Sequence record: NZ_CP154590.1
Direction: 5' to 3' (one strand)
Source of the DNA: a plasmid
Length of the DNA stretch: 64,000 nt
The notes beneath the pieces are model-generated. The model was not told the DNA's origin. It was given only the letters and a program-made list of their open reading frames with translations, and did not search any database. Shown here in pieces: positions 21,170 through 39,325 of this stretch. The position numbers and the translations under genes were made by a program. Within the stretch, counting starts at the first letter, position 1. Each line of letters begins with the position of its first letter.

Positions 21170-21300
21170 GTGCTCCTTACTCGGGTGTCGGGGCGGAGCC
21201 CTGACCAGGTGGCATTTGTAATATCGTGCGTGCGCGGTATTACAAATGCACATCCTGTCCCGTTTTTTCGGCCATTATACGCTTCGCTGGCTGTTTCGCC
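21170..21300. promoter_or_regulatory. oriT: oriT (IncI-type) with inverted repeats and probable nic region
   Basis: 11-bp inverted repeat CATTTGTAATA (21213-21223) / TATTACAAATG (21238-21248) followed by CACATCCTGTCCCG; GC-rich repeat GGGTGTCGGGGCGGAGCCC upstream; located upstream of nikA. Confidence 0.6.
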
Positions 21301-22796: not shown

Positions 22797-23137
22797 CGCG
22801 GGTGGCCGTTCCCGTGATAAAGCGAACGGCCTGACCTACAAGGAGGAGATGCAAGGGTGCAGCAGGAAGCCGCAGCGCAAGCGACCAGAGGGAGTGCGAA
22901 CGGGTGAGTGATGTGCCCTTGCATAGACTCCGGGTCGGGCCAGAGTCTTTCACGGGTAAGGCAGCACGCGGTGAGCAAAGTACTCAAAAGGTGAAAGCTG
23001 GAATTATCCGGCGGGCGAAGCCCGTTTCCTTTCTGGGGCCGCCAGGTGGCCCCAGTCAGGGCGGCGCTGTCGGGACGGCAGCTGCAAGCCCGTGCGCCGG
23101 AGGTGGAGAATTATGCCCGGGCGTGCCGGGCTGATAC

Positions 23138-23905: not shown

Positions 23906-24575
23906 CATAGTTAACTCCTTTGGTTTTGATGAGGACCAGTTGCATCTGGTCTGGAAGAAGCAGAGTTCGCGCTCTGCTTTTTTATTGCCTGTGATCCGGC
24001 AATCCTTTCTGCGTCGATGACGCAAGCCTTCAGTTGTTCCCCCCCGGCTCCTTCTGCCGTCTCTTTTTTCTTCGGCTTCCGGGCCAGAACGAAACGCCCT
24101 CATTGCGCAGACGATCCGGCAGCGCCCGAAAGAGGCTGCAAGGGTTAAGGACTTATTTTTTCTGCGTCACACCGGAAAAAATCAGGCCTTAAGCAGCTCT
24201 GCTGCGACCCTTTCAGACGCTTACGGGAGATGTCAGTCTGCATCAGCAATGAGAGGCTTTCGTGCGTGCGGAGGGGAAAAAGGACGGCAGAAGAAGCCGG
24301 TGAAGCCGGCTTTCCTTAGCGGACGCCAGCGGCGGCCAGTGAAAGCGGCGCGGCCGGAACGGTCGCAGCAAGCGCGGGGGTTGCCGTTCGACATCGGACA
24401 CTAGCGAATAGCCCGAAACCGCTTGCGGGTTCGGCGGAGCCTGGCCGGTGCGTCAGCAGCTGCCCGGCGGAGTGTGGCCTGACGACCCGGCGCGCTGGCG
24501 CGACGGGGAGCCGAAGGGGGCGCACCTTTCGCATTTTCCTTTCTCTTTTCGCTGTCAATTTCAACATCAAAAAAA

Positions 24576-27056: not shown

Positions 27057-27960
27057 GATCTCCTTTCTTTTAATCACATCACCCGTTGAGTTACGGGAGC
27101 CGCGGTTTTGACGTTTTGCGGGAACCTGCTGAAGTTTCCCGGGTTGTTTCACTTCACCCGTTTGAGAACCTTCGCCGCAGGTGCAGCACGCCACCGGCCG
27201 ACGCCGGAATCCGGGGCGGAAGCGCAAAGTTTTTACCTGGAAAAAGTTTTCGCTGGAGAGCGGCAGCGGCCCTGGATGACAAGGAGGACTGTGGCGTGAT
27301 TCAGCACCCAGGAGGAGGATCTCAAAGGGCGAAACGCACAACGGAGAAGACGAGCCGGGACCCGCCGCAACGGCGATACGCGGCAGCGTAGCGATGTTGC
27401 CCTGCAGAATCCCGTCGCCGGCGACGGGATGGTGAGAGCGGCGTGGCCGGAACGGCCGCAGCAAGCGTGGGGTTGACCTTCTCCATCGGACACTAGCGAA
27501 TAGCCCGAAACCCGCAGGGGTTCGGCGGAGCCTGGCGGGTGCGTTAAGCAGTTGCCCTGGCGGAGTGTGGCCTGACGACCTGGCGCGCTGGCGCGACGGG
27601 GAGCCGAAGGTGGTCGGGTTCTTCGCCTTTCTGGTTTGAAACAGCAAAAATCCGGGAGAAAATGGCACAGCTATCAGGGAAAGTGGTACAGAAGTGAGTA
27701 AAGAGAAACAGACGGCAGGAAGAAAGCGGAAGACGACTAAATGACCATAATGAGGACATAAACGGAGGGGAGGATGGGAGGCGCGCAGCGCCTCTCCCCC
27801 GCCCTTCCAGCTGGGCGCCCTGCAGCAGGTTGTTCATGCCAGGCCAGACAGGGAAAAGGGCCTCCCTGCGAACAGGGAAGCCCTTCTAAAAGCGCTTGCG
27901 GCAATGGTCCGACAACATCCGATACCCTGAATGGCGGGGGTTTCCCCCCGCCGGGGTTAG

Positions 27961-32175: not shown

Positions 32176-32757
32176 AAAACCCCTCTGGTCTGGTTTTCAG
32201 AGGCAAAGCCTCTCCTGCCGTCCTCTTTCTGGTGTTTTCACACACTGCGGAGGACCTTTCCGCGAGAGCGTAACGGGCACGGCCCGGTGAAGCTGTCCAG
32301 GATTAGCGGGAAATTTATTCCGGCTCGTCCGGAAAAAATTTGCTGATAAAGCCCCGGCGGTCCTGGCCAGCAAGACGGGTTGTGGCGGTATCAGCGACCG
32401 GAAAGGCACTCAGCAGGGAATGAACGCAGAGGAAGTGGCGGGAGAGAGCCGGCAACGTCAACAACGTTGCCCCTTACACCCCGGAACGGGGTGCATCGAG
32501 CGCAGGAACGGCGCGACAGGGCGGCGCGACCGGAACGGTCGCTGCAAGCCAGCCTTTGACGTTGCGACAGCCTGGGATGGAAACCCGCTGCCCGAAGGTT
32601 TACCGGAGGGCCGGGCAGAGACAGCGCAGCTGGCTCGGTGCGAAGCATGACAGCCCCGGTTCCCGAAGGGAAGTCGCCCGGGTAAACCAGCCCGTGGAAA
32701 AAAAGTATCTGAAAGCCCCGGTTTTTATCGTTCTGGTTATGGTTCTGGCCACGCGGT

Positions 32758-32810
32758 CCACGCCCACGCCCACGCCCACGCCCACGCCCACGCCCACGCC
32801 CACGCCCACG
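32758..32810. repeat. hexanucleotide tandem repeat (CACGCC)x9
   Basis: Eight perfect CACGCC units plus a partial unit; lies in an 800-bp non-coding, GC-rich stretch. Confidence 0.9.
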
Positions 32811-32982
32811 CAGGTCAGCATGTTTCAGAAACGACAGCAGGAAAAGCAGATTTCAGAACTGATTCATTACCGGCTTCACCGGCGGAGGGAATGCGCCGCA
32901 GGCGCTTTCCCCTGCCGTCATCCCGCAGGGATGACAGGGTTTTCCCGCGCGCGAACAGGCGGCTCATTGGCCGCCTCCGGGA

Positions 32983-33171
32983 CTAATATTTAACTTTTTG
33001 CTGGATAAACTGGCCGCCGATAAAAAGTTGCTCGCGACGAGTCAACAAATCACAAATATCGTCAAGGAGCATTGGCGTCGTTATAGGTCTGAGGCCTAAT
33101 TCCCTGCGGCGTTCGTTTACCAGAGTTTTGTAGTGTTTCAGAATTTTGCGTGTTTCAGGTGTCATTTTCAT
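32983..33171 (-). CDS. small hypothetical protein (62 aa) downstream of ardA
   Basis: ORF 44 bp after the ardA stop, probably co-transcribed. Confidence 0.3.
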   Translation of the reverse strand: MKMTPETRKILKHYKTLVNERRRELGLRPITTPMLLDDICDLLTRREQLFIGGQFIQQKVKY

Positions 33172-33213
33172 AGGGAACCTTTTTCCGGCAGGGTTTCCCC
33201 TGCCTTATCTGAA

Positions 33214-33738
33214 TTAGCGACGAAAAACATAGCCATCAATGAAGTTGAAAGTGTCGATAAACAAATCACGGGCAAACGCGTCATAGTCAAAGTAGCCGCG
33301 CAGGCTCTCAGGGATAGCCGCCAGCAGGCTGTGTTCGTTCACGTAGTCCACAGCAAAATCTTCTTCGCTCACGGCCTCGCCATAGTAGGCGTCTTCGAAC
33401 GCGTCAAAGTCGCATTCGCCGCTGTATTCGGCCCACGCGATAAATGCCGCGTCCTTACCTACATCCTTCGCCTGTTTGTAGGCATCGATGAAATCCCAGT
33501 CCACAGAGCTTTCAGAGGCAAACTGAGAAGGAATGCCTTCCCAGTCCTGAAACATCAGTTCCGGGTCATGCTCATTCGCGTGGAGCGCGTGGCAGGCTTC
33601 CAGAAAGTCTTCTTTCTCGTCGAAATCGGTCAAATCAAACCATTTTCCGGCCAGGCTGCCACAGTTGTATTTGTGATAAGTGCCAACGTATACCGCCGGG
33701 GTGGTGGTGCTGATAGTGTTCATGGGTGTTCCCTCCAT
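33214..33738 (-). CDS. ardA: ArdA antirestriction protein (DNA mimic, anti type I R-M)
   Basis: Highly acidic 166-174 aa; PAVYVGTYHKYNCGSLAGKWFDLTDFD and HDPELMFQDWEGIPS match ColIb-P9 ArdA closely. Confidence 0.85.
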   Translation of the reverse strand: MEGTPMNTISTTTPAVYVGTYHKYNCGSLAGKWFDLTDFDEKEDFLEACHALHANEHDPELMFQDWEGIPSQFASESSVDWDFIDAYKQAKDVGKDAAFIAWAEYSGECDFDAFEDAYYGEAVSEEDFAVDYVNEHSLLAAIPESLRGYFDYDAFARDLFIDTFNFIDGYVFRR

Positions 33739-33765
33739 AGTCCAGGTTATCTGAGTACCGGCTTA

Positions 33766-34000
33766 CGCCGTGCCGACACGACAGCCCGACGAAAAGCGGA
33801 GGATGCAAGGTCGGAAGCGGAGGCCGCAGCGCAGATAAAGCAGAGGCGGTCTGGACGGTTTTTCTGCGAATTTTTGAGCAGAAAAACAACGGGAAGAACG
33901 CCGATAATCATCAAAAATAACTGCGACCGGGTGACGGTGGAGGTGGCGCCAGCCACGTGCCTTGCATACGCAGCGGTCGGGCTAAAGTGAAGGCACGGCG
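33766..34000 (-). repeat. GC-rich palindromic leading-region repeat A1 (putative ssDNA promoter, Frpo/ssi-like)
   Basis: Ends CGCCGTGCCGACACGACAGCCCGAC ... GTCGGGCTAAAGTGAAGGCACGGCG are mutually complementary (large hairpin); about 235 bp; directly upstream of ardA. Confidence 0.5.
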
Positions 34001-34130
34001 TTAGCCGCAGACCGCACGAAATCTCATCCCGCGCGCGCCCGTAACAGCGTGGAGGTCGCGCTGGTATAGCGGAGCAGCGCGACATCCGATTCCTGTTCAG
34101 AACTGCGGGGCAATCTGCCCCGCCCGTCGG

Positions 34131-34910
34131 TCACGCAGCAATCCGGATTCCGGAGAATGACCGCATCATCGCGTCAATTTCGACGCGGGCCTCGCTGACC
34201 GCATCACGTAACCAGCGGCGCTCAAACCATACGCGTGATGGGCTGTCCGGGTGACGCAGCGCGAACGGTACGTCCGTGACACCAACAACGCGACCGCGAC
34301 ATTCGAGACGGATCTGGAGGCGACGAAACGTTTCCTGCCCGTCGAGGACGGCTTTCAGGCGCGCGTCGAGAGTGTCGTTATCCCACTCGGTATCATCGCT
34401 TCCGGCTTCCACTTCAATCACGGAGAGCGTGAAGTTGCGCGTCCGGCGGGTAAACACCAGAGGATCAGCAGCAGGACGCAGGGCTTCTGTCAGGCGGTAT
34501 CCGGCAGCGGCGACACAGCTACAGACATGGTTGATTTCGTCTCGCAGGGCTTTCAGGAGGCACAGGATTTGTTTTACCGACATCCCGGCAGGACAGTTAT
34601 CGTATTCCAGCGAAATCGTGCCAGCGTGGGCTTTGCGGTGGCCCAGCGAGTTGCGGTAAAGACGAACAATCAGATCGCTCCCGCCAACTAATGGCAGCAG
34701 TTCATTCAGTGCGCTATCCGGCATCAGGCCACGCAGCGCAATTTCAGGCAACAGGCGCAGCAGATCGGACGCCCCCAGTTGGCCATAGAAAGCGACGCCT
34801 TCCCCACGCGAATAATTCAGGCTGGTATCGATATCCATCGTGGCTGGCCAGCCACGGGCAACCAGCGTGTTACGGGTGTGACGGTGCATAAAGCGATAAG
34901 CGGTGGTCAT
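34131..34910 (-). CDS. hypothetical leading-region protein (259 aa)
   Basis: ORF directly downstream of repeat A2; no motif recognised. Confidence 0.4.
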   Translation of the reverse strand: MTTAYRFMHRHTRNTLVARGWPATMDIDTSLNYSRGEGVAFYGQLGASDLLRLLPEIALRGLMPDSALNELLPLVGGSDLIVRLYRNSLGHRKAHAGTISLEYDNCPAGMSVKQILCLLKALRDEINHVCSCVAAAGYRLTEALRPAADPLVFTRRTRNFTLSVIEVEAGSDDTEWDNDTLDARLKAVLDGQETFRRLQIRLECRGRVVGVTDVPFALRHPDSPSRVWFERRWLRDAVSEARVEIDAMMRSFSGIRIAA

Positions 34911-34943
34911 AGTTTTCTCCTTGTCTCGACGCGGCGACTGCTT

Positions 34944-35178
34944 CGCCGTGCCGATACGACAGCCCGACGATCCGCGGGAAATGCAAGGGCGGAACCGGAG
35001 GCCGCAGCGCAGATAAAAGCAGAAACGGTCTGGACGGTTATCGAGCGAAACCTGAGCGAGAGAACGACGGGAAGAACGTTGAAAAACATAAAAAATTTAC
35101 TGCGACCGGGCGATGGTGGAGATGGCCCGGCCATGTCCCTTGCATTAACCGCAGTCGGGCTATAGTGGAGGCACGGCG
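34944..35178 (-). repeat. GC-rich palindromic leading-region repeat A2 (putative ssDNA promoter)
   Basis: Same terminal sequences and internal GATGCAAGG..GCCGCAGCGCAGATAAA core as A1. Confidence 0.5.
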
Positions 35179-35273
35179 TTGACACCCGCCGCGACACCGG
35201 CGCGGCATAAAAAGCGGAGTCCACGACATCCTTATGGCTGATTTGGCGGGCTGACAATGCAGCCCGGCCACGG

Positions 35274-35612
35274 TTAGCGGGTGAATTCGTCCCAGTGTTC
35301 GTTGAACTGATTCTGAACCCGCGGGCTTGTCAGATCACCGGTAACAACCCAGGCATCCAGGAATTTAAGCTCCTGCAGGATAGAACTTTCAACATCATCA
35401 AGCAGTGTGATGCTGTTAAACCAGACCGACTTTCCGGAACGATAAGCCCATCGGCAGCCATCACTCTCTTCCAGGCATTCCTGCCACCAGGTTCTCCCCA
35501 TATAAACAACCCCGGCTTCCGCCAGCGCCAGACTCTCCGCCTGGATCAGGAAATATGCCGGAAACTCAAGATCAGAAACTTCGATATCGACGCCAATCAA
35601 CCAGGTATTCAT
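35274..35612 (-). CDS. hypothetical protein (112 aa), downstream gene of a coupled pair
   Basis: Start overlaps the stop of the 153-aa gene (ATGA). Confidence 0.4.
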   Translation of the reverse strand: MNTWLIGVDIEVSDLEFPAYFLIQAESLALAEAGVVYMGRTWWQECLEESDGCRWAYRSGKSVWFNSITLLDDVESSILQELKFLDAWVVTGDLTSPRVQNQFNEHWDEFTR

Positions 35613-36073
35613 TATTTCTTTGCCTCTTCAATCGCCCACTGCAGGTGATCCCAGTTGAAACCGATATTGGCATCATGGCATTCATCAGCGAGTGCCATCG
35701 CAGCCTCAATCGTCTCGTTGTCCAGCGTGTTATCGAGCGAAAGGAAATCGTCGGCCAGCCAGAACGTCCCTGTACAAAGTGCATCCAGAGGATGTTGCTG
35801 CAATCTGGCAATCATCCCCGATACAGTCATTTCACGACGCCACAGACCAGGTGTCGGGAAAACTGCGTTGGCCACATCAAACCACTCCCAGTCTCCTGGC
35901 GGTACCGGCCATTTCACCATTTCGGTCTGAACGCCTGGTAGCCGGGACAGACGCTCAAGGATCTCCCCCAGGGAAAACTTATGGCCACTTACATCGTCAC
36001 TGGCCAGACAGTGGCCATTGAGAAACACCGCATGCTGGCCATCATCCAGCGTAATACACGTCAGCTTAAACAT
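35612..36073 (-). CDS. hypothetical protein (153 aa), first gene after repeat A3
   Basis: RBS GGAGGGAAAT before ATG; no motif. Confidence 0.4.
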   Translation of the reverse strand: MFKLTCITLDDGQHAVFLNGHCLASDDVSGHKFSLGEILERLSRLPGVQTEMVKWPVPPGDWEWFDVANAVFPTPGLWRREMTVSGMIARLQQHPLDALCTGTFWLADDFLSLDNTLDNETIEAAMALADECHDANIGFNWDHLQWAIEEAKK

Positions 36074-36100
36074 ATTTCCCTCCTTAACCCGGCACCCATC

Positions 36101-36329
36101 TGCGCCGTGCCGACACGACAGCCCGACGATCAGTGGTTAATGCAAGGGCGCCAGCAAGGCCGGTAGCCGGTAATAGCAGAGGCGTTCCGAACGGGTTTTC
36201 CGTGAAAATTGAGCGGAAAACCGACGGAAGGAACGACGATAAGACGTTAAATCACAGGCGGCCGGGTGCAGCTGGCGGCGCAGCTTCCCTTGCATTCACC
36301 ACAGTCGGGCTATAGTGAAGGCACGGCGC
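36101..36329 (-). repeat. GC-rich palindromic leading-region repeat A3 (putative ssDNA promoter)
   Basis: Third copy of the CGCCGTGCCGACACGACAGCCCGAC ... GTCGGGCTATAGTGAAGGCACGGCG element. Confidence 0.5.
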
Positions 36330-36427
36330 ACCCATGCCTGAAGATGGGATAACCAGACGCTGCCGGTTCAATACCGGCAGTGGATGGCTGGGGAGAGATG
36401 ATGAGCCCCGGTTTCCCGGGGACGTCT

Positions 36428-37171
36428 TCAGGAAAAGCTGGAGGTTAATTCCCGATCGTGGATGATACGCTGGCGTACCTCGTCAGCCAGAGCATGAAGC
36501 GCTTTCAGCGGTAGCCAATGGCGTACTGGCGCTCCCGGACGAATAATGCAAATGCCGGCGCTGCGGTCACCTTCGCGGACCATATCAAAATCACGGTAAA
36601 TCGCGAGGCCAACGGCAACAACTGCGGCCCCGTGGTGAAAAATTTCTGTCAGCCATAGTTGCTGTTGTTCAGCATCCGGGCGCATCAGCGGCGGCATATC
36701 ATTCCACGCTTCACCAAAAACCCAGAAGTGGCGTGTCTGGCGCTCAAAAATATTAATCCCTTCATACTGGGCTCCGGTCATGTCGTTAATAATGCCGGCA
36801 TCAATGAAGATCTGACGGCACAGGACCATCAAATCGGCTTCAATCGCTTCAGTCAGGCCAATACAGATCGGGTTCGCCTCCTCAAAATCAACCCGAACAC
36901 AAGGATCACCTTTCAGGATTTCGCCGCTGACGCTTGCACACAGGTTGAGATCACTGCACATCTGCTGCAGGCCATGGACCGCACGGGTATCAAGATGGCC
37001 ACGTGAAGCAATCGCCGGCAGCATCGCCATAATAGATTCGGTAGTGACATGGCCCGAAATAGTGAAGCAATAACAGTTTGCATCAGGCTGGACAACGACT
37101 GACGACGGCCAGTTGTTTTCTGACAGGATCTGACGGCTGCGGGTTGGTGCAAGAGTCATATAAAGATTCAT
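36428..37171 (-). CDS. hypothetical leading-region protein (247 aa)
   Basis: Start MNLYMTLAP with RBS AAGGAG; another GC-rich element (shared core GCCGCAGCGCAAGCGACCAGAGGGAGTGCGAACGGGTG, also found at 22870) lies upstream. Confidence 0.4.
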   Translation of the reverse strand: MNLYMTLAPTRSRQILSENNWPSSVVVQPDANCYCFTISGHVTTESIMAMLPAIASRGHLDTRAVHGLQQMCSDLNLCASVSGEILKGDPCVRVDFEEANPICIGLTEAIEADLMVLCRQIFIDAGIINDMTGAQYEGINIFERQTRHFWVFGEAWNDMPPLMRPDAEQQQLWLTEIFHHGAAVVAVGLAIYRDFDMVREGDRSAGICIIRPGAPVRHWLPLKALHALADEVRQRIIHDRELTSSFS

Positions 37172-37590
37172 AGGGTACTCCTTCGTTTGATTTACCGGGC
37201 TTCTTCTGCCGTAGCTTTTACGTACGGGAGGATATCTCCCGCCATAAGCGACAGGCGGCAACGTGCCATCAGGCAAAAATCAAGTTCCGGAGGCAAAGCC
37301 GCAGCGCAAGCGACCAGAGGGAGTGCGAACGGGTGCAGCAGCAGGCGACTTTATTTTTGCCGGCACGGTGCAACTGTTTAAGCGATGGCTGGAGATAATC
37401 TGACTGCAATAGAGCAGCAAAGTGACTTCATTGGATATACCCACATCGTTATCCCCCGATTCTGTGGATAAGTAACCCAGCTCTCAACGAGTGCAAGGTA
37501 CCACATCACCGGTGGAGTTTTTCCAGGAACTACAGAGGGTTAAAGGCAGCAAAAAATCAATACTTGAAAGTGTCTTCAATAAGGCAATAA

Positions 37591-37610
37591 TACTGTATAT
37601 GCAAACAGTG
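37591..37610 (+). promoter_or_regulatory. LexA (SOS) box
   Basis: TACTGTATATGCAAACAGTG fits CTGT-N8-ACAG, 16 bp upstream of the umuD-like start. Confidence 0.7.
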
Positions 37611-37625
37611 TTATTTGAGGTGGTT

Positions 37626-38054
37626 ATGTTTGAGTTTATACGTGCTGACAGCAATCCAGAGTTGACGCCCATCCCTCTCTATAGCGATCGCTGCCAGGCT
37701 GGGTTTCCCTCACCGGCCCAGGACTACGTGGAGGCCGAATTAGACCTGAACCAGTACTGTATATCGCGGCCCAGCTCAACCTACTTTGTACGAGCTATCG
37801 GCAACTCGATGACCGACATCGGCCTGCATTCGGGCGACTTGATGATCGTCGATAAAGCCGAACAGGCTCAGCACGGAGACATCGTCATAGCTGAGATAGA
37901 GGGAGAGTTCACGGTTAAGAGATTGCTGCTGAGGCCACGGCCTGGACTGCAGGCGATGAACCCAGCCTACCCAACTCTATGGCCAGACCCGGAGAACCTG
38001 CAGATCTTCGGTGTCGTGACGGCATTTGTGCACAAAACCCGGGGACATGATTGA
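37626..38054 (+). CDS. UmuD/MucA/ImpA-family SOS mutagenesis protein (S24 peptidase)
   Basis: 142 aa; [10 protein letters not shown] cleavage region, GNSM active-site Ser, [15 protein letters not shown]; the ORF-track N-terminal extension is rejected. Confidence 0.8.
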
Positions 38055-39325
38055 TGTTCGCCCTGGCTGATGTGAACAGCTTTTATGCGAGTTGTGAGAA
38101 GGTCTTTCGTCCTGACTTACGTGATAGACCAGTGGTTGTTCTTAGCAATAACGATGGTTGTGTTATAGCCAGATCTAAGGAAGCGAAGCGGCTTGGAATC
38201 AAAATGGGGATCCCCTGGTTTCAGCTAAAAGCAATGCAGTTCCCGGAGAAAGTCCTAACGTTTTCCAGTAATTATGAGCTGTACGCAAGTCTGAGCAACC
38301 GGGTCATGGCACATCTGGAAGAATTGGCGCCCCGCGTTGAGCAGTATAGTATCGACGAAATGTTCCTGGATATTCGCGGCATCGATGGCTGTACTGACTT
38401 TGAAGATTTCGGACGGCAGCTGCGCGAGCACGTCCTAAGAGGAACCGGACTGACAATTGGTGTCGGGATGGGACCGACAAAAACTTTAGCAAAATCAGCA
38501 CAATGGGCTTCTAAGGAGTGGCCGCAATTTGGGGGCGTGCTGGCCCTGACTACTGGCAATCTCCGTAGGACAGAGAAACTGCTCTCACTGCAGCCAGTGG
38601 AGGAAATCTGGGGGGTTGGTCGCCGCATAGGCAAAAAGCTGAATACATACGGCGTGACAACTGCGCTGCAGCTGGCGCGCATGAACCCTGCCTTTGTACG
38701 CAAGAACTTTACCGTGGTGCTGGAGCGGACAGTACGCGAGCTGAACGGTGAGGCCTGTATATCTCTTGAAGAGGCACCGCCCGCAAAGCAGCAGATTGTC
38801 TGCAGCCGATCATTCGGAGAGCGCATCACGACTTACGAAGCGTTGCGACAGGCTATCTGCCAGTACGCCGAACGCGCGGCTGAAAAATTGCGGGGAGAAC
38901 ATCAGTTCTGCCGGCACATATCGGTCTTTATCAAAACCTCCCCTTTCGCAGTCAACGAAGCTTATTACGGCAACGTGGCCAGTGAAAAGCTTCTAGTGCC
39001 TACACGCGACACCCGAGACATCATTAATGCCTCAGTAAAAGCCCTGGACTGTATCTGGCTCGACGGGCATCGATATGCAAAGGCTGGAGTAATGCTGAAT
39101 GACTTCACCCCTACGGGAGTAGCACAGTTAAATCTTTTCGATGACGTTAAGCCGCGGGAATGTAGCGAGGAGCTAATGAAAGCCCTGGATGGCATAAACC
39201 ATTCAGGGCTCGGGAGGGTATGGTTTGCTGGGCGCGGAATAGCGCCGGACTGGCAGATGAAAAGAGAAATGCTGTCGCCGGCATACACAACTAAATGGAC
39301 TGATATACCGTGCGCCTCAATTTGA
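38054..39325 (+). CDS. UmuC/MucB/ImpB-family Y-family DNA polymerase V catalytic subunit
   Basis: [16 protein letters not shown]-terminus; 423 aa; start overlaps the umuD stop (TGATG). Confidence 0.85.

Follow-up and report, generated by a model that had tools for sequence, protein, structure and literature searches.

Plasmid anti-defence islands are limited by the origin of transfer (oriT) and umuDC and are encoded on the transferred strand (T strand) (Samuel et al. 2024, PMC11541004). As class 2 single-stranded DNA (ssDNA) promoters, Wen et al. 2025 (PMC12672017) described hairpins 5' of klcA and ardA in pESBL, for which starts were mapped by 5' rapid amplification of cDNA ends (5' RACE) and a transient induction of up to ~500-fold was observed in transconjugants; the class is conserved in F. 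The F copy was named ssp2 by Fraikin et al. 2026 (bioRxiv 10.64898/2026.01.09.698686), who found it to act as promoter and as roadblock to complementary-strand synthesis, which is resolved by UvrD. Alike in principle are the Frpo/ssi elements of class 1 (F Frpo1/2, ColIb-P9 ssi1-3; Masai and Arai 1997; Bates et al. 1999), T-strand hairpins that mimic a duplex sigma-70 promoter and confer zygotic induction on leading-region genes. Here, we present elements of the ssp2 type in a plasmid stretch of 64,000 nucleotides (sequence record NZ_CP154590.1; the whole stretch is called the window in the following): three hairpins of ~235 nt lie 5' of ardA, of the uncharacterised gene orf259 and of the overlapping gene pair orf153/orf112, and a shorter hairpin lies 5' of a further uncharacterised gene, orf247.

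Class 2 hairpins on the transferred strand

An nhmmer search with a profile that included the F ssp2 and pCH365 copies detected three full-length occurrences of the ~235-nt imperfect palindrome, and no more, in the 64-kb window (E 1e-52 to 1e-56). Folds were computed for the + strand as single-stranded DNA. The reference copy 5' of ardA (33763-34004, +; E 1.9e-55) folded with -69.8 kcal/mol and a z-score of -7.2, the copy 5' of orf153/orf112 (36099-36333, +; E 1.8e-52) with -73.6 kcal/mol and a z-score of -8.3, and the copy 5' of orf259 (34940-35183, +; E 6.9e-56), also covered by the covariation analysis, with -51.1 kcal/mol and a z-score of -2.9. A 25-mer of the arm occurred three times, against zero occurrences expected by chance. 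A first-pass annotation of the window had described the palindromes as identical in ends and core; this holds loosely, for the ends and the promoter core, which are near-invariant, whereas the overall identity between the window copies is 69-80% in pairwise comparison. In an alignment of seven sequences the hairpin comprised 65 pairs, with 94.7% of the cells paired and compensatory changes in 26 pairs. None of 500 shuffles equalled the observed value, and sliding the 3' partner by 1-3 columns left 32-43% paired. Because of this covariation and the fold z-scores (-2.9 to -8.3), the long hairpin appears to be kept by selection on the transferred strand.

The gene-distal arm carries, on the T strand, the sequence TTGCAT-N15-TATAGT, with TAAAGT as -10 in the ardA copy; both boxes, assigned as -35 and -10 hexamers in this analysis, are invariant or near-invariant in the alignment. 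They are located at 33962-33967 (TTGCAT) and 33983-33988 (TAAAGT) in the ardA copy, at 35140-35145 (TTGCAT) and, after a spacer of 15 nt, 35161-35166 (TATAGT) in the orf259 copy, and at 36290-36295 (TTGCAT) and 36311-36316 (TATAGT) in the orf153/orf112 copy. The consensus structure leaves the three bases at the centre of the -10 unpaired and pairs those flanking them; a partly pre-melted -10 has reportedly been described for Frpo by Masai and Arai 1997. From the gene-proximal arm to the Shine-Dalgarno sequence and start codon the distance is 27-40 nt for every copy; in the case of orf259, the stem base is 33 nt from the ATG. Each of the four hypothetical open reading frames (ORFs) has a strong Shine-Dalgarno sequence, and a site scan of the - strand found no conventional sigma-70-like site between these genes.

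An end-to-end alignment was obtained for all three copies with F ssp2, which is situated between an ORF of 258 amino acids (aa) and ardB, with the klcA and ardA elements of pCH365 (IncI-gamma) and with the candidate Frpo' 4 of Samuel. Their identity to F ssp2 is 57-63%. The F ssp2 sequence used here has 86.7% identity to Frpo' 4, and 86% is given in print (PMC13478746), thus the F element in the comparison was the right one. Shared with ssp2 and class 2 are the ~235-nt hairpin with the ends GCCGTGCC...GGCACGGC, the TTGCAT box, the placement of the -10 within the internal loop, the site 5' of ardA, the strand relative to oriT and the collinear alignment with its 26 compensatory pairs. The -10 reads TAAGAT in F and TATAGT or TAAAGT in the window copies, and the window differs in having three tandem copies, two of which serve genes other than ardA or klcA. 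In homology, T-strand hairpin, gene-distal boxes with a partly unpaired -10 and leading-region location, the three copies agree with class 2, and by these features they make up a divergent group within the known class 2 (ssp2) ssDNA promoters. The "A-family" palindromes of the first-pass annotation, which had no name for them, are by the same alignment a published promoter class; the idea was correct, not new. Similarity to class 1 was absent at 33000-37500 in a blastn search with ColIb Frpo1 and F ssiD, the sole match of both queries being F ssiD at 27088-27200. The class 1-like hairpins of the window are elsewhere, at 24041-24300 and 27088-27400.

The strand assignment comes from oriT. An R64-like oriT core was located at 21190-21262 (+); an inverted repeat of 17-18 nt at 21212-21249 is followed by ACATCCTG/TCCCGTTTTT, where the slash marks the nick and the sequence past it begins with TC and reads TCCCG. 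The predicted nick is near 21257/21258. The segment corresponds essentially to the R64 oriT core and fits the MOBP nick consensus YATCCTG/Y. This orientation makes the + strand the transferred strand: the first DNA to reach the recipient has the higher coordinates, and the - strand genes up to umuDC are templated by the incoming strand. It is thus the transferred strand that folds in the three copies, and this strand also templates the - strand gene downstream. The region from orf259 to orf247 is located ~12.5-16 kb from the nick. Judged from its sequence, the plasmid is conjugative and IncI-like (MOBP), and this region is the part of the leading region farthest from oriT, at its distal edge.

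Predicted early expression

We consider it likely that the + strand hairpins bring about an early and transient expression of orf259 and orf153-orf112 on entry, and that the encoded proteins act in the new host during establishment. Once the + strand enters the recipient as ssDNA, the three ~235-nt palindromes would fold into long hairpins. The gene-distal arm would provide the sigma-70 promoter, with the -10 centre in the internal loop, and the gene-proximal arm the template, which leads on directly to the gene downstream. Host RNA polymerase would read the pseudo-duplex promoter from a start near the stem base into ardA, orf259 and orf153-orf112. Complementary-strand synthesis would destroy the hairpin and turn the promoter off, resulting in a short zygotic burst. 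By analogy with F ssp2, the elements may stall complementary-strand synthesis and so lengthen the burst, and three tandem hairpins could delay the conversion of everything between the hairpins and oriT.

For two of the three units, orf259 and orf153/orf112, such an early transient burst is well supported in our analysis, as the R64-like oriT puts the folding strand on the transferred strand. The expression mechanism proposed for both rests on homology, structure and orientation, with starts and ssDNA specificity imported from pESBL and F. An ardA-like promoter and, with it, the early programme of ardA had been attributed to all three units. The attribution is correct for orf259 and orf153/orf112, whose elements are class 2 homologues on the transferred strand with the architecture of the ardA copy, and its principle was already established in the literature. 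For orf247 it is unproven: the element there is truncated and diverged with poor promoter boxes, and a conventional sigma-70-like site offers an alternative. Likewise, a ~235-bp palindrome precedes orf259 and orf153/orf112 as it precedes ardA, but the hairpin at orf247 is shorter.

Several observations weigh against this expression model. The assigned spacer of 15 nt is short for sigma-70, and the orf259 copy folds less convincingly (z -2.9) than the other copies. A roadblock effect of ssp2 has been documented in no plasmid other than F. Upstream of orf247, no match to the class 2 profile was obtained with nhmmer (E<=10); the -35 of the hairpin is TTGCCG in place of TTGCAT, and its -10 position reads TTAAGC/TAAGCG in place of TATAGT, still in the internal loop. 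A single compensatory pair was present in the orf247 hairpin, because there is so little variation among these hairpins. In one metagenomic relative (L010, 805-928), the homologues of orf247 and orf154 are 122 nt apart, without space for a full hairpin, and in another relative (L008, 901-1260) the same gap is 358 nt. The private promoter before the orf153 unit hence varies by lineage and is not universal.

Four hypothetical proteins

Orf259 (34131-34910), orf112 (35274-35612), orf153 (35612-36073) and orf247 (36428-37171) are present on the - strand as previously placed, and the prokaryotic genome annotation pipeline (PGAP) calls the same ORFs in plasmids of 100% identity. The translational coupling claimed for the pair was confirmed, the orf153 stop overlapping the orf112 start (TAATG, shared base 35612). 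Scans of the four proteins against Pfam, NCBIfam and PADLOC yielded zero matches, PHROGs contributed families of unknown function only, sequence searches of the PDB with profiles or single sequences returned nothing meaningful, and BFVD contained nothing at E<0.001. The ArdA Pfam domain did not match any of the four at E<=1, whereas the neighbour ardA scored 6.7e-31. A DNA-binding or enzymatic signature was absent from the proteins. The earlier statement that no recognisable domains are encoded is therefore accurate for Pfam and NCBIfam, but orf259 and orf247 are paralogues in the widespread YchA/YfdA/NgrC family of leading regions.

Orf259 (pI 8.3) belongs to this family by sequence homology. 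In tblastn it matched >5000 plasmid records, including the genes yfdA (IncI) and NgrC (Klebsiella IncHI1B/FIB). Over the full length it aligned with the F 258-aa ORF just 5' of ssp2 (31% identity, E 1e-22), with a 259-aa ORF of pMT1 located 5' of a class 2 element and ardA (27%) and with Klebsiella NgrC (33%). Orf247 (pI 5.2) is a distant full-length paralogue of orf259, recognisable by profile methods only: hhalign aligned the two families over 216 columns with a probability of 96.9% (E 1.4e-10), and orf247 with the C-terminal part of the F protein with 89.5%. Both orf259 and orf247 matched phrog_8919, the latter with E 1.2e-6. YchA/YfdA/NgrC is family 10, the tenth most prevalent, of the top 100 leading-region families in Supplementary Table 1 of Samuel et al. 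2024; its 3556 members, named YchA, YfdA, NgrC or YcfA, are encoded on the T strand and listed as "uncharacterized". The label "ArdA" in that table applies to 10 of the 3556 members. A length of ~250-260 aa, the T strand and a leading-region position near ardA/klcA are common to the family and the two genes of the window. The homologue closes a methylase-small ORF-DUF1380 operon in F, IncI, pMT1 and pSLT-type plasmids, whereas here two diverged paralogues stand outside such an operon, each alone behind its own hairpin.

An exhaustive profile search for the family collected 162 cluster representatives. Columns invariant across both paralogue groups were mostly W, P, R, G and L and formed no obvious catalytic constellation. 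Two representatives were fusions: P0080 (375 aa) combined DUF1380 with a full YchA-like domain, P0094 (414 aa) DUF1281 with the C-terminal half of a YchA-like domain. The fusions may point to a functional connection with DUF1380, whose gene is usually the neighbour 5' of YchA/YfdA; they could also be gene-calling merges. A match to PDB 2ijr (Api92, DUF1281; E 4e-8) was rejected, as the aligned positions were the DUF1281 N-terminal extension of the single fusion P0094. In a literature search, no function was given for YfdA or YchA, and "NgrC" returned unrelated uses only.

Both members of the orf153/orf112 pair are acidic, with a pI of 4.5 for orf153 and 4.2 for orf112. Orf153 consists of an N-terminal beta and a C-terminal helical domain and matched phrog_10258 (E 1.6e-5) with residues 112-150. 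The helical domain was also found as a stand-alone ORF of ~80 aa in Klebsiella plasmids. The structural model of orf153 (predicted local distance difference test (pLDDT) 72.5) had no informative structural match. The two genes are co-conserved as an overlapping pair, for example directly beside umuDC in Salmonella pSLT-type IncF plasmids, and the pSLT-type pair is preceded by another long T-strand hairpin (z -5.4).

The element upstream of orf247

Upstream of orf247, a short and diverged hairpin lies at ~37232-37400 (+) and aligns in register with the class 2 arms. It is collinear with both arms and lacks the apical ~90 nt. Using CACCGTGCC as alignment anchor was discarded, since its presence there is a chance occurrence and the proper register matches the class 2 arms. 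The hairpin is ~85-90% conserved 5' of orf247 homologues in four other contigs, one of which has a different upstream neighbour; the proteins of these contigs are 66-86% identical. It is best described as a truncated, conserved relative of class 2, whose predicted promoter activity is uncertain. A candidate double-stranded DNA (dsDNA) promoter for orf247, the sigma-70-like site TTGAGA-17-CAGAAT with 9/12 matching positions, is located at 37459-37487 (-); four such sites in the region, as compared to 2.9 expected, make it a weak candidate.

In the orf247 leader, 37198-37212 (-), the 15-mer ACGGCAGAAGAAGCC was encountered, which elsewhere in the window is present only in both arms of the class 1-like hairpin at 24044-24300. 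Its three matches compare to 0.12 expected. The sequence 5' of orf247 thus looks like a mosaic, in which a truncated class 2 hairpin adjoins what is left of a hairpin of another class. In Klebsiella pKP137-4 (L003, 6783-6960), an IncHI1B/FIB plasmid, a short-apex hairpin of 178 nt with class 2-like ends lies directly 5' of NgrC, so short variants precede members of the YchA family elsewhere too.

Alternative explanations

For the hairpins, a role mainly in replication, either in priming (single-strand initiation sites) or in delaying the complementary strand as roadblocks, with expression as a secondary effect, seems rather doubtful to us. The complementary strand is primed by Frpo transcripts, in F its synthesis stalls where the ssp2 stem ends, and a polymerase coming from further along the T strand would first meet the three stable tandem hairpins, which sit at the distal limit of the leading region. 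This role is however compatible with promoter function, as the same class gives strong induction with mapped starts in F and pESBL; in addition, one arm conserves the promoter-like TTGCAT/TATAGT with an unpaired -10, and each copy keeps its short distance to a Shine-Dalgarno sequence and start codon. Selfish or structural repeats without a promoter role, such as elements resembling miniature inverted-repeat transposable elements (MITE) or repetitive extragenic palindromic (REP) sequences, terminators or insulators, would also be repeated, GC-rich and palindromic, and a terminator-like motif was flagged within one arm. This explanation is hardly credible in view of the strict orientation to the transferred strand and the downstream genes, the conserved promoter boxes placed asymmetrically on one arm only and the homology to elements with mapped transcription starts; target-site duplications or an association with a transposase were not seen. 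Some credit, short of preference, is due to the view that orf247 lies outside the single-strand programme and is expressed poorly or from a conventional dsDNA promoter, its hairpin being a decayed remnant. The missing nhmmer match, the deleted apex, the TTGCCG box and a -10 position without the consensus A and T fit this view, as do the sigma-70-like site at 37487-37459 and the 15-mer common to the leader and the hairpin 24044-24300, which suggests a past rearrangement. A decayed remnant is less easily reconciled with a hairpin that is conserved at least as well as the proteins, even in the contig with a different upstream neighbour, or with the -10-like bases that remain in its internal loop. 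Moreover, short-apex variants with good boxes exist naturally, namely Frpo* 1 and 3 of Samuel and the element 5' of Klebsiella NgrC, and the sigma-70 site is no better than chance. Class 2 promoters active during entry remain our preferred account for orf259 and orf153/orf112.

With respect to the proteins, a role in the recipient is suggested because ArdA, an ArdB-like protein, a methylase and PsiA/PsiB are encoded in the same island, and because of the T-strand orientation, the private early promoters, the divergence of the paralogues and, for the orf153/orf112 pair, the small size and acidity. From this context we tentatively propose, as a possibility short of an even chance, that the four proteins are binding (stoichiometric) inhibitors of recipient defence or stress pathways during establishment. 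They might instead be other establishment factors, involved in host reprogramming, in the handling of incoming ssDNA or as partners of the methylase and DUF1380; taken by itself this is not very likely, and it is about equally likely as defence inhibition. The membership of the YchA/YfdA homologue in the methylase-small ORF-DUF1380 operon of F, IncI, pMT1 and pSLT and the one representative with a DUF1380-YchA fusion point to such factors, and the leading-region protein YfjB is reported to reprogram the host (PMC13370423). Yet two YchA paralogues are kept here in an annotated region that has no DUF1380 gene, and none of the proteins has the signature of a DNA-binding protein or an enzyme. A toxin-antitoxin or addiction pair, as might be expected from two small, overlapping and co-conserved genes in a leading region, where toxin-antitoxin genes are enriched, is very improbable for orf153/orf112: both proteins are acidic, neither matched a toxin or antitoxin family in Pfam, NCBIfam or PADLOC, and the orf153 model lacks a DNA-binding fold. 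More speculative, and unlikely as a whole, is a combination in which the YchA-superfamily paralogues and the acidic pair would be unrecognised immunity inhibitors, each on its own ssDNA promoter before the plasmid is double-stranded, and in which the three ssp2-type hairpins would be staged roadblocks that, compared with the one ssp2 copy of F, prolong both the single-stranded state of the entire ~13-kb leading region and the activity of the promoters in it.

Comparison with known leading regions

The region extends the known picture of leading regions and is not a new kind of system; the architecture of the island has been published before. With the anti-defence islands of Samuel et al. 2024 (PMC11541004) it shares layout, strand bias, ssDNA promoters and the umuDC boundary, and also the content of ArdA, ArdB-like antirestriction protein, methylase, PsiA/PsiB and hok. 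Orf259, orf247, orf153 and orf112 differ in having no demonstrated or predicted anti-defence activity. New here is, by sequence comparison, a diverged class 2 subgroup ahead of previously unreported cargo, of which the larger proteins are a known uncharacterised family. Class 2 ssDNA promoters are hence not limited to ardA and klcA and appear to be reused as portable early-expression cassettes for other genes. They mark orf259, orf153-orf112 and perhaps orf247 as candidates for genes needed in the first minutes after entry. Resistance plasmids of IncF, IncI and related types that encode YchA/YfdA/NgrC proteins number in the thousands and are of clinical importance. With two diverged YchA copies under private promoters, the plasmid described here lends itself well to studying the role of the family. 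Current leading-region biology is unchanged by the finding, the value of which lies in motivated candidates for functional screens.

Genetic neighbourhood and further hairpins

The segment at 33-38 kb of the window matches, with 100% identity, a group of plasmids of ~85-130 kb from Enterobacter, Citrobacter and related genera, e.g. E. hormaechei p5-20710. The annotation of an identical plasmid lists a MOBP relaxase and MobA. After oriT comes a run of genes on one strand: DUF932, DUF5983, DUF957, antirestriction, N6-methylase, hok, psiA, psiB, ParB-like, DUF905, ardA and the four hypothetical ORFs; beyond these are a divergent umuDC operon and parMR. The antirestriction gene ardA, annotated with 169 aa in the identical plasmid, is at 33214-33723 (-) and has the Pfam ArdA domain (E 6.7e-31). 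The divergent umuDC operon at 37626-39325 (+) forms the distal limit of the leading-region island, a boundary role as in PMC11541004. A LexA-box-like sequence, CACTGTTTGCATATACAGTA, was noted at 37591-37610, 5' of umuD. Between DUF905 and ardA, at 32758-32817, a perfect tandem hexanucleotide (CCACGC) is repeated ~10x and falls within an annotated ORF of doubtful status, the product of which would be (VG)n.

Other long T-strand hairpins were seen at 24041-24300 (-77 kcal/mol), 27088-27400 (about -62 kcal/mol) and 32241-32500 (-66 kcal/mol), preceding the DUF5983, methylase/antirestriction and DUF905-ParB-psiBA gene groups, respectively. The hairpin at 27088-27400 has 80% identity over 117 nt to F ssiD/Frpo1. 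All three are probably further ssDNA promoters of other classes. A short hairpin at 22835-22938 (+) with ATGCAAGG/CCTTGCAT, located 5' of the DUF932 gene, gave weak, partial nhmmer matches to class 2 (E 0.045 and 0.75). In Yersinia pestis pMT1 (L012, 2596-4280), which is typed as non-mobilizable, a YchA-like ORF, a class 2 hairpin, ardA, DUF905 and ParB are kept in an arrangement syntenic with 31.8-35.2 kb of the window.

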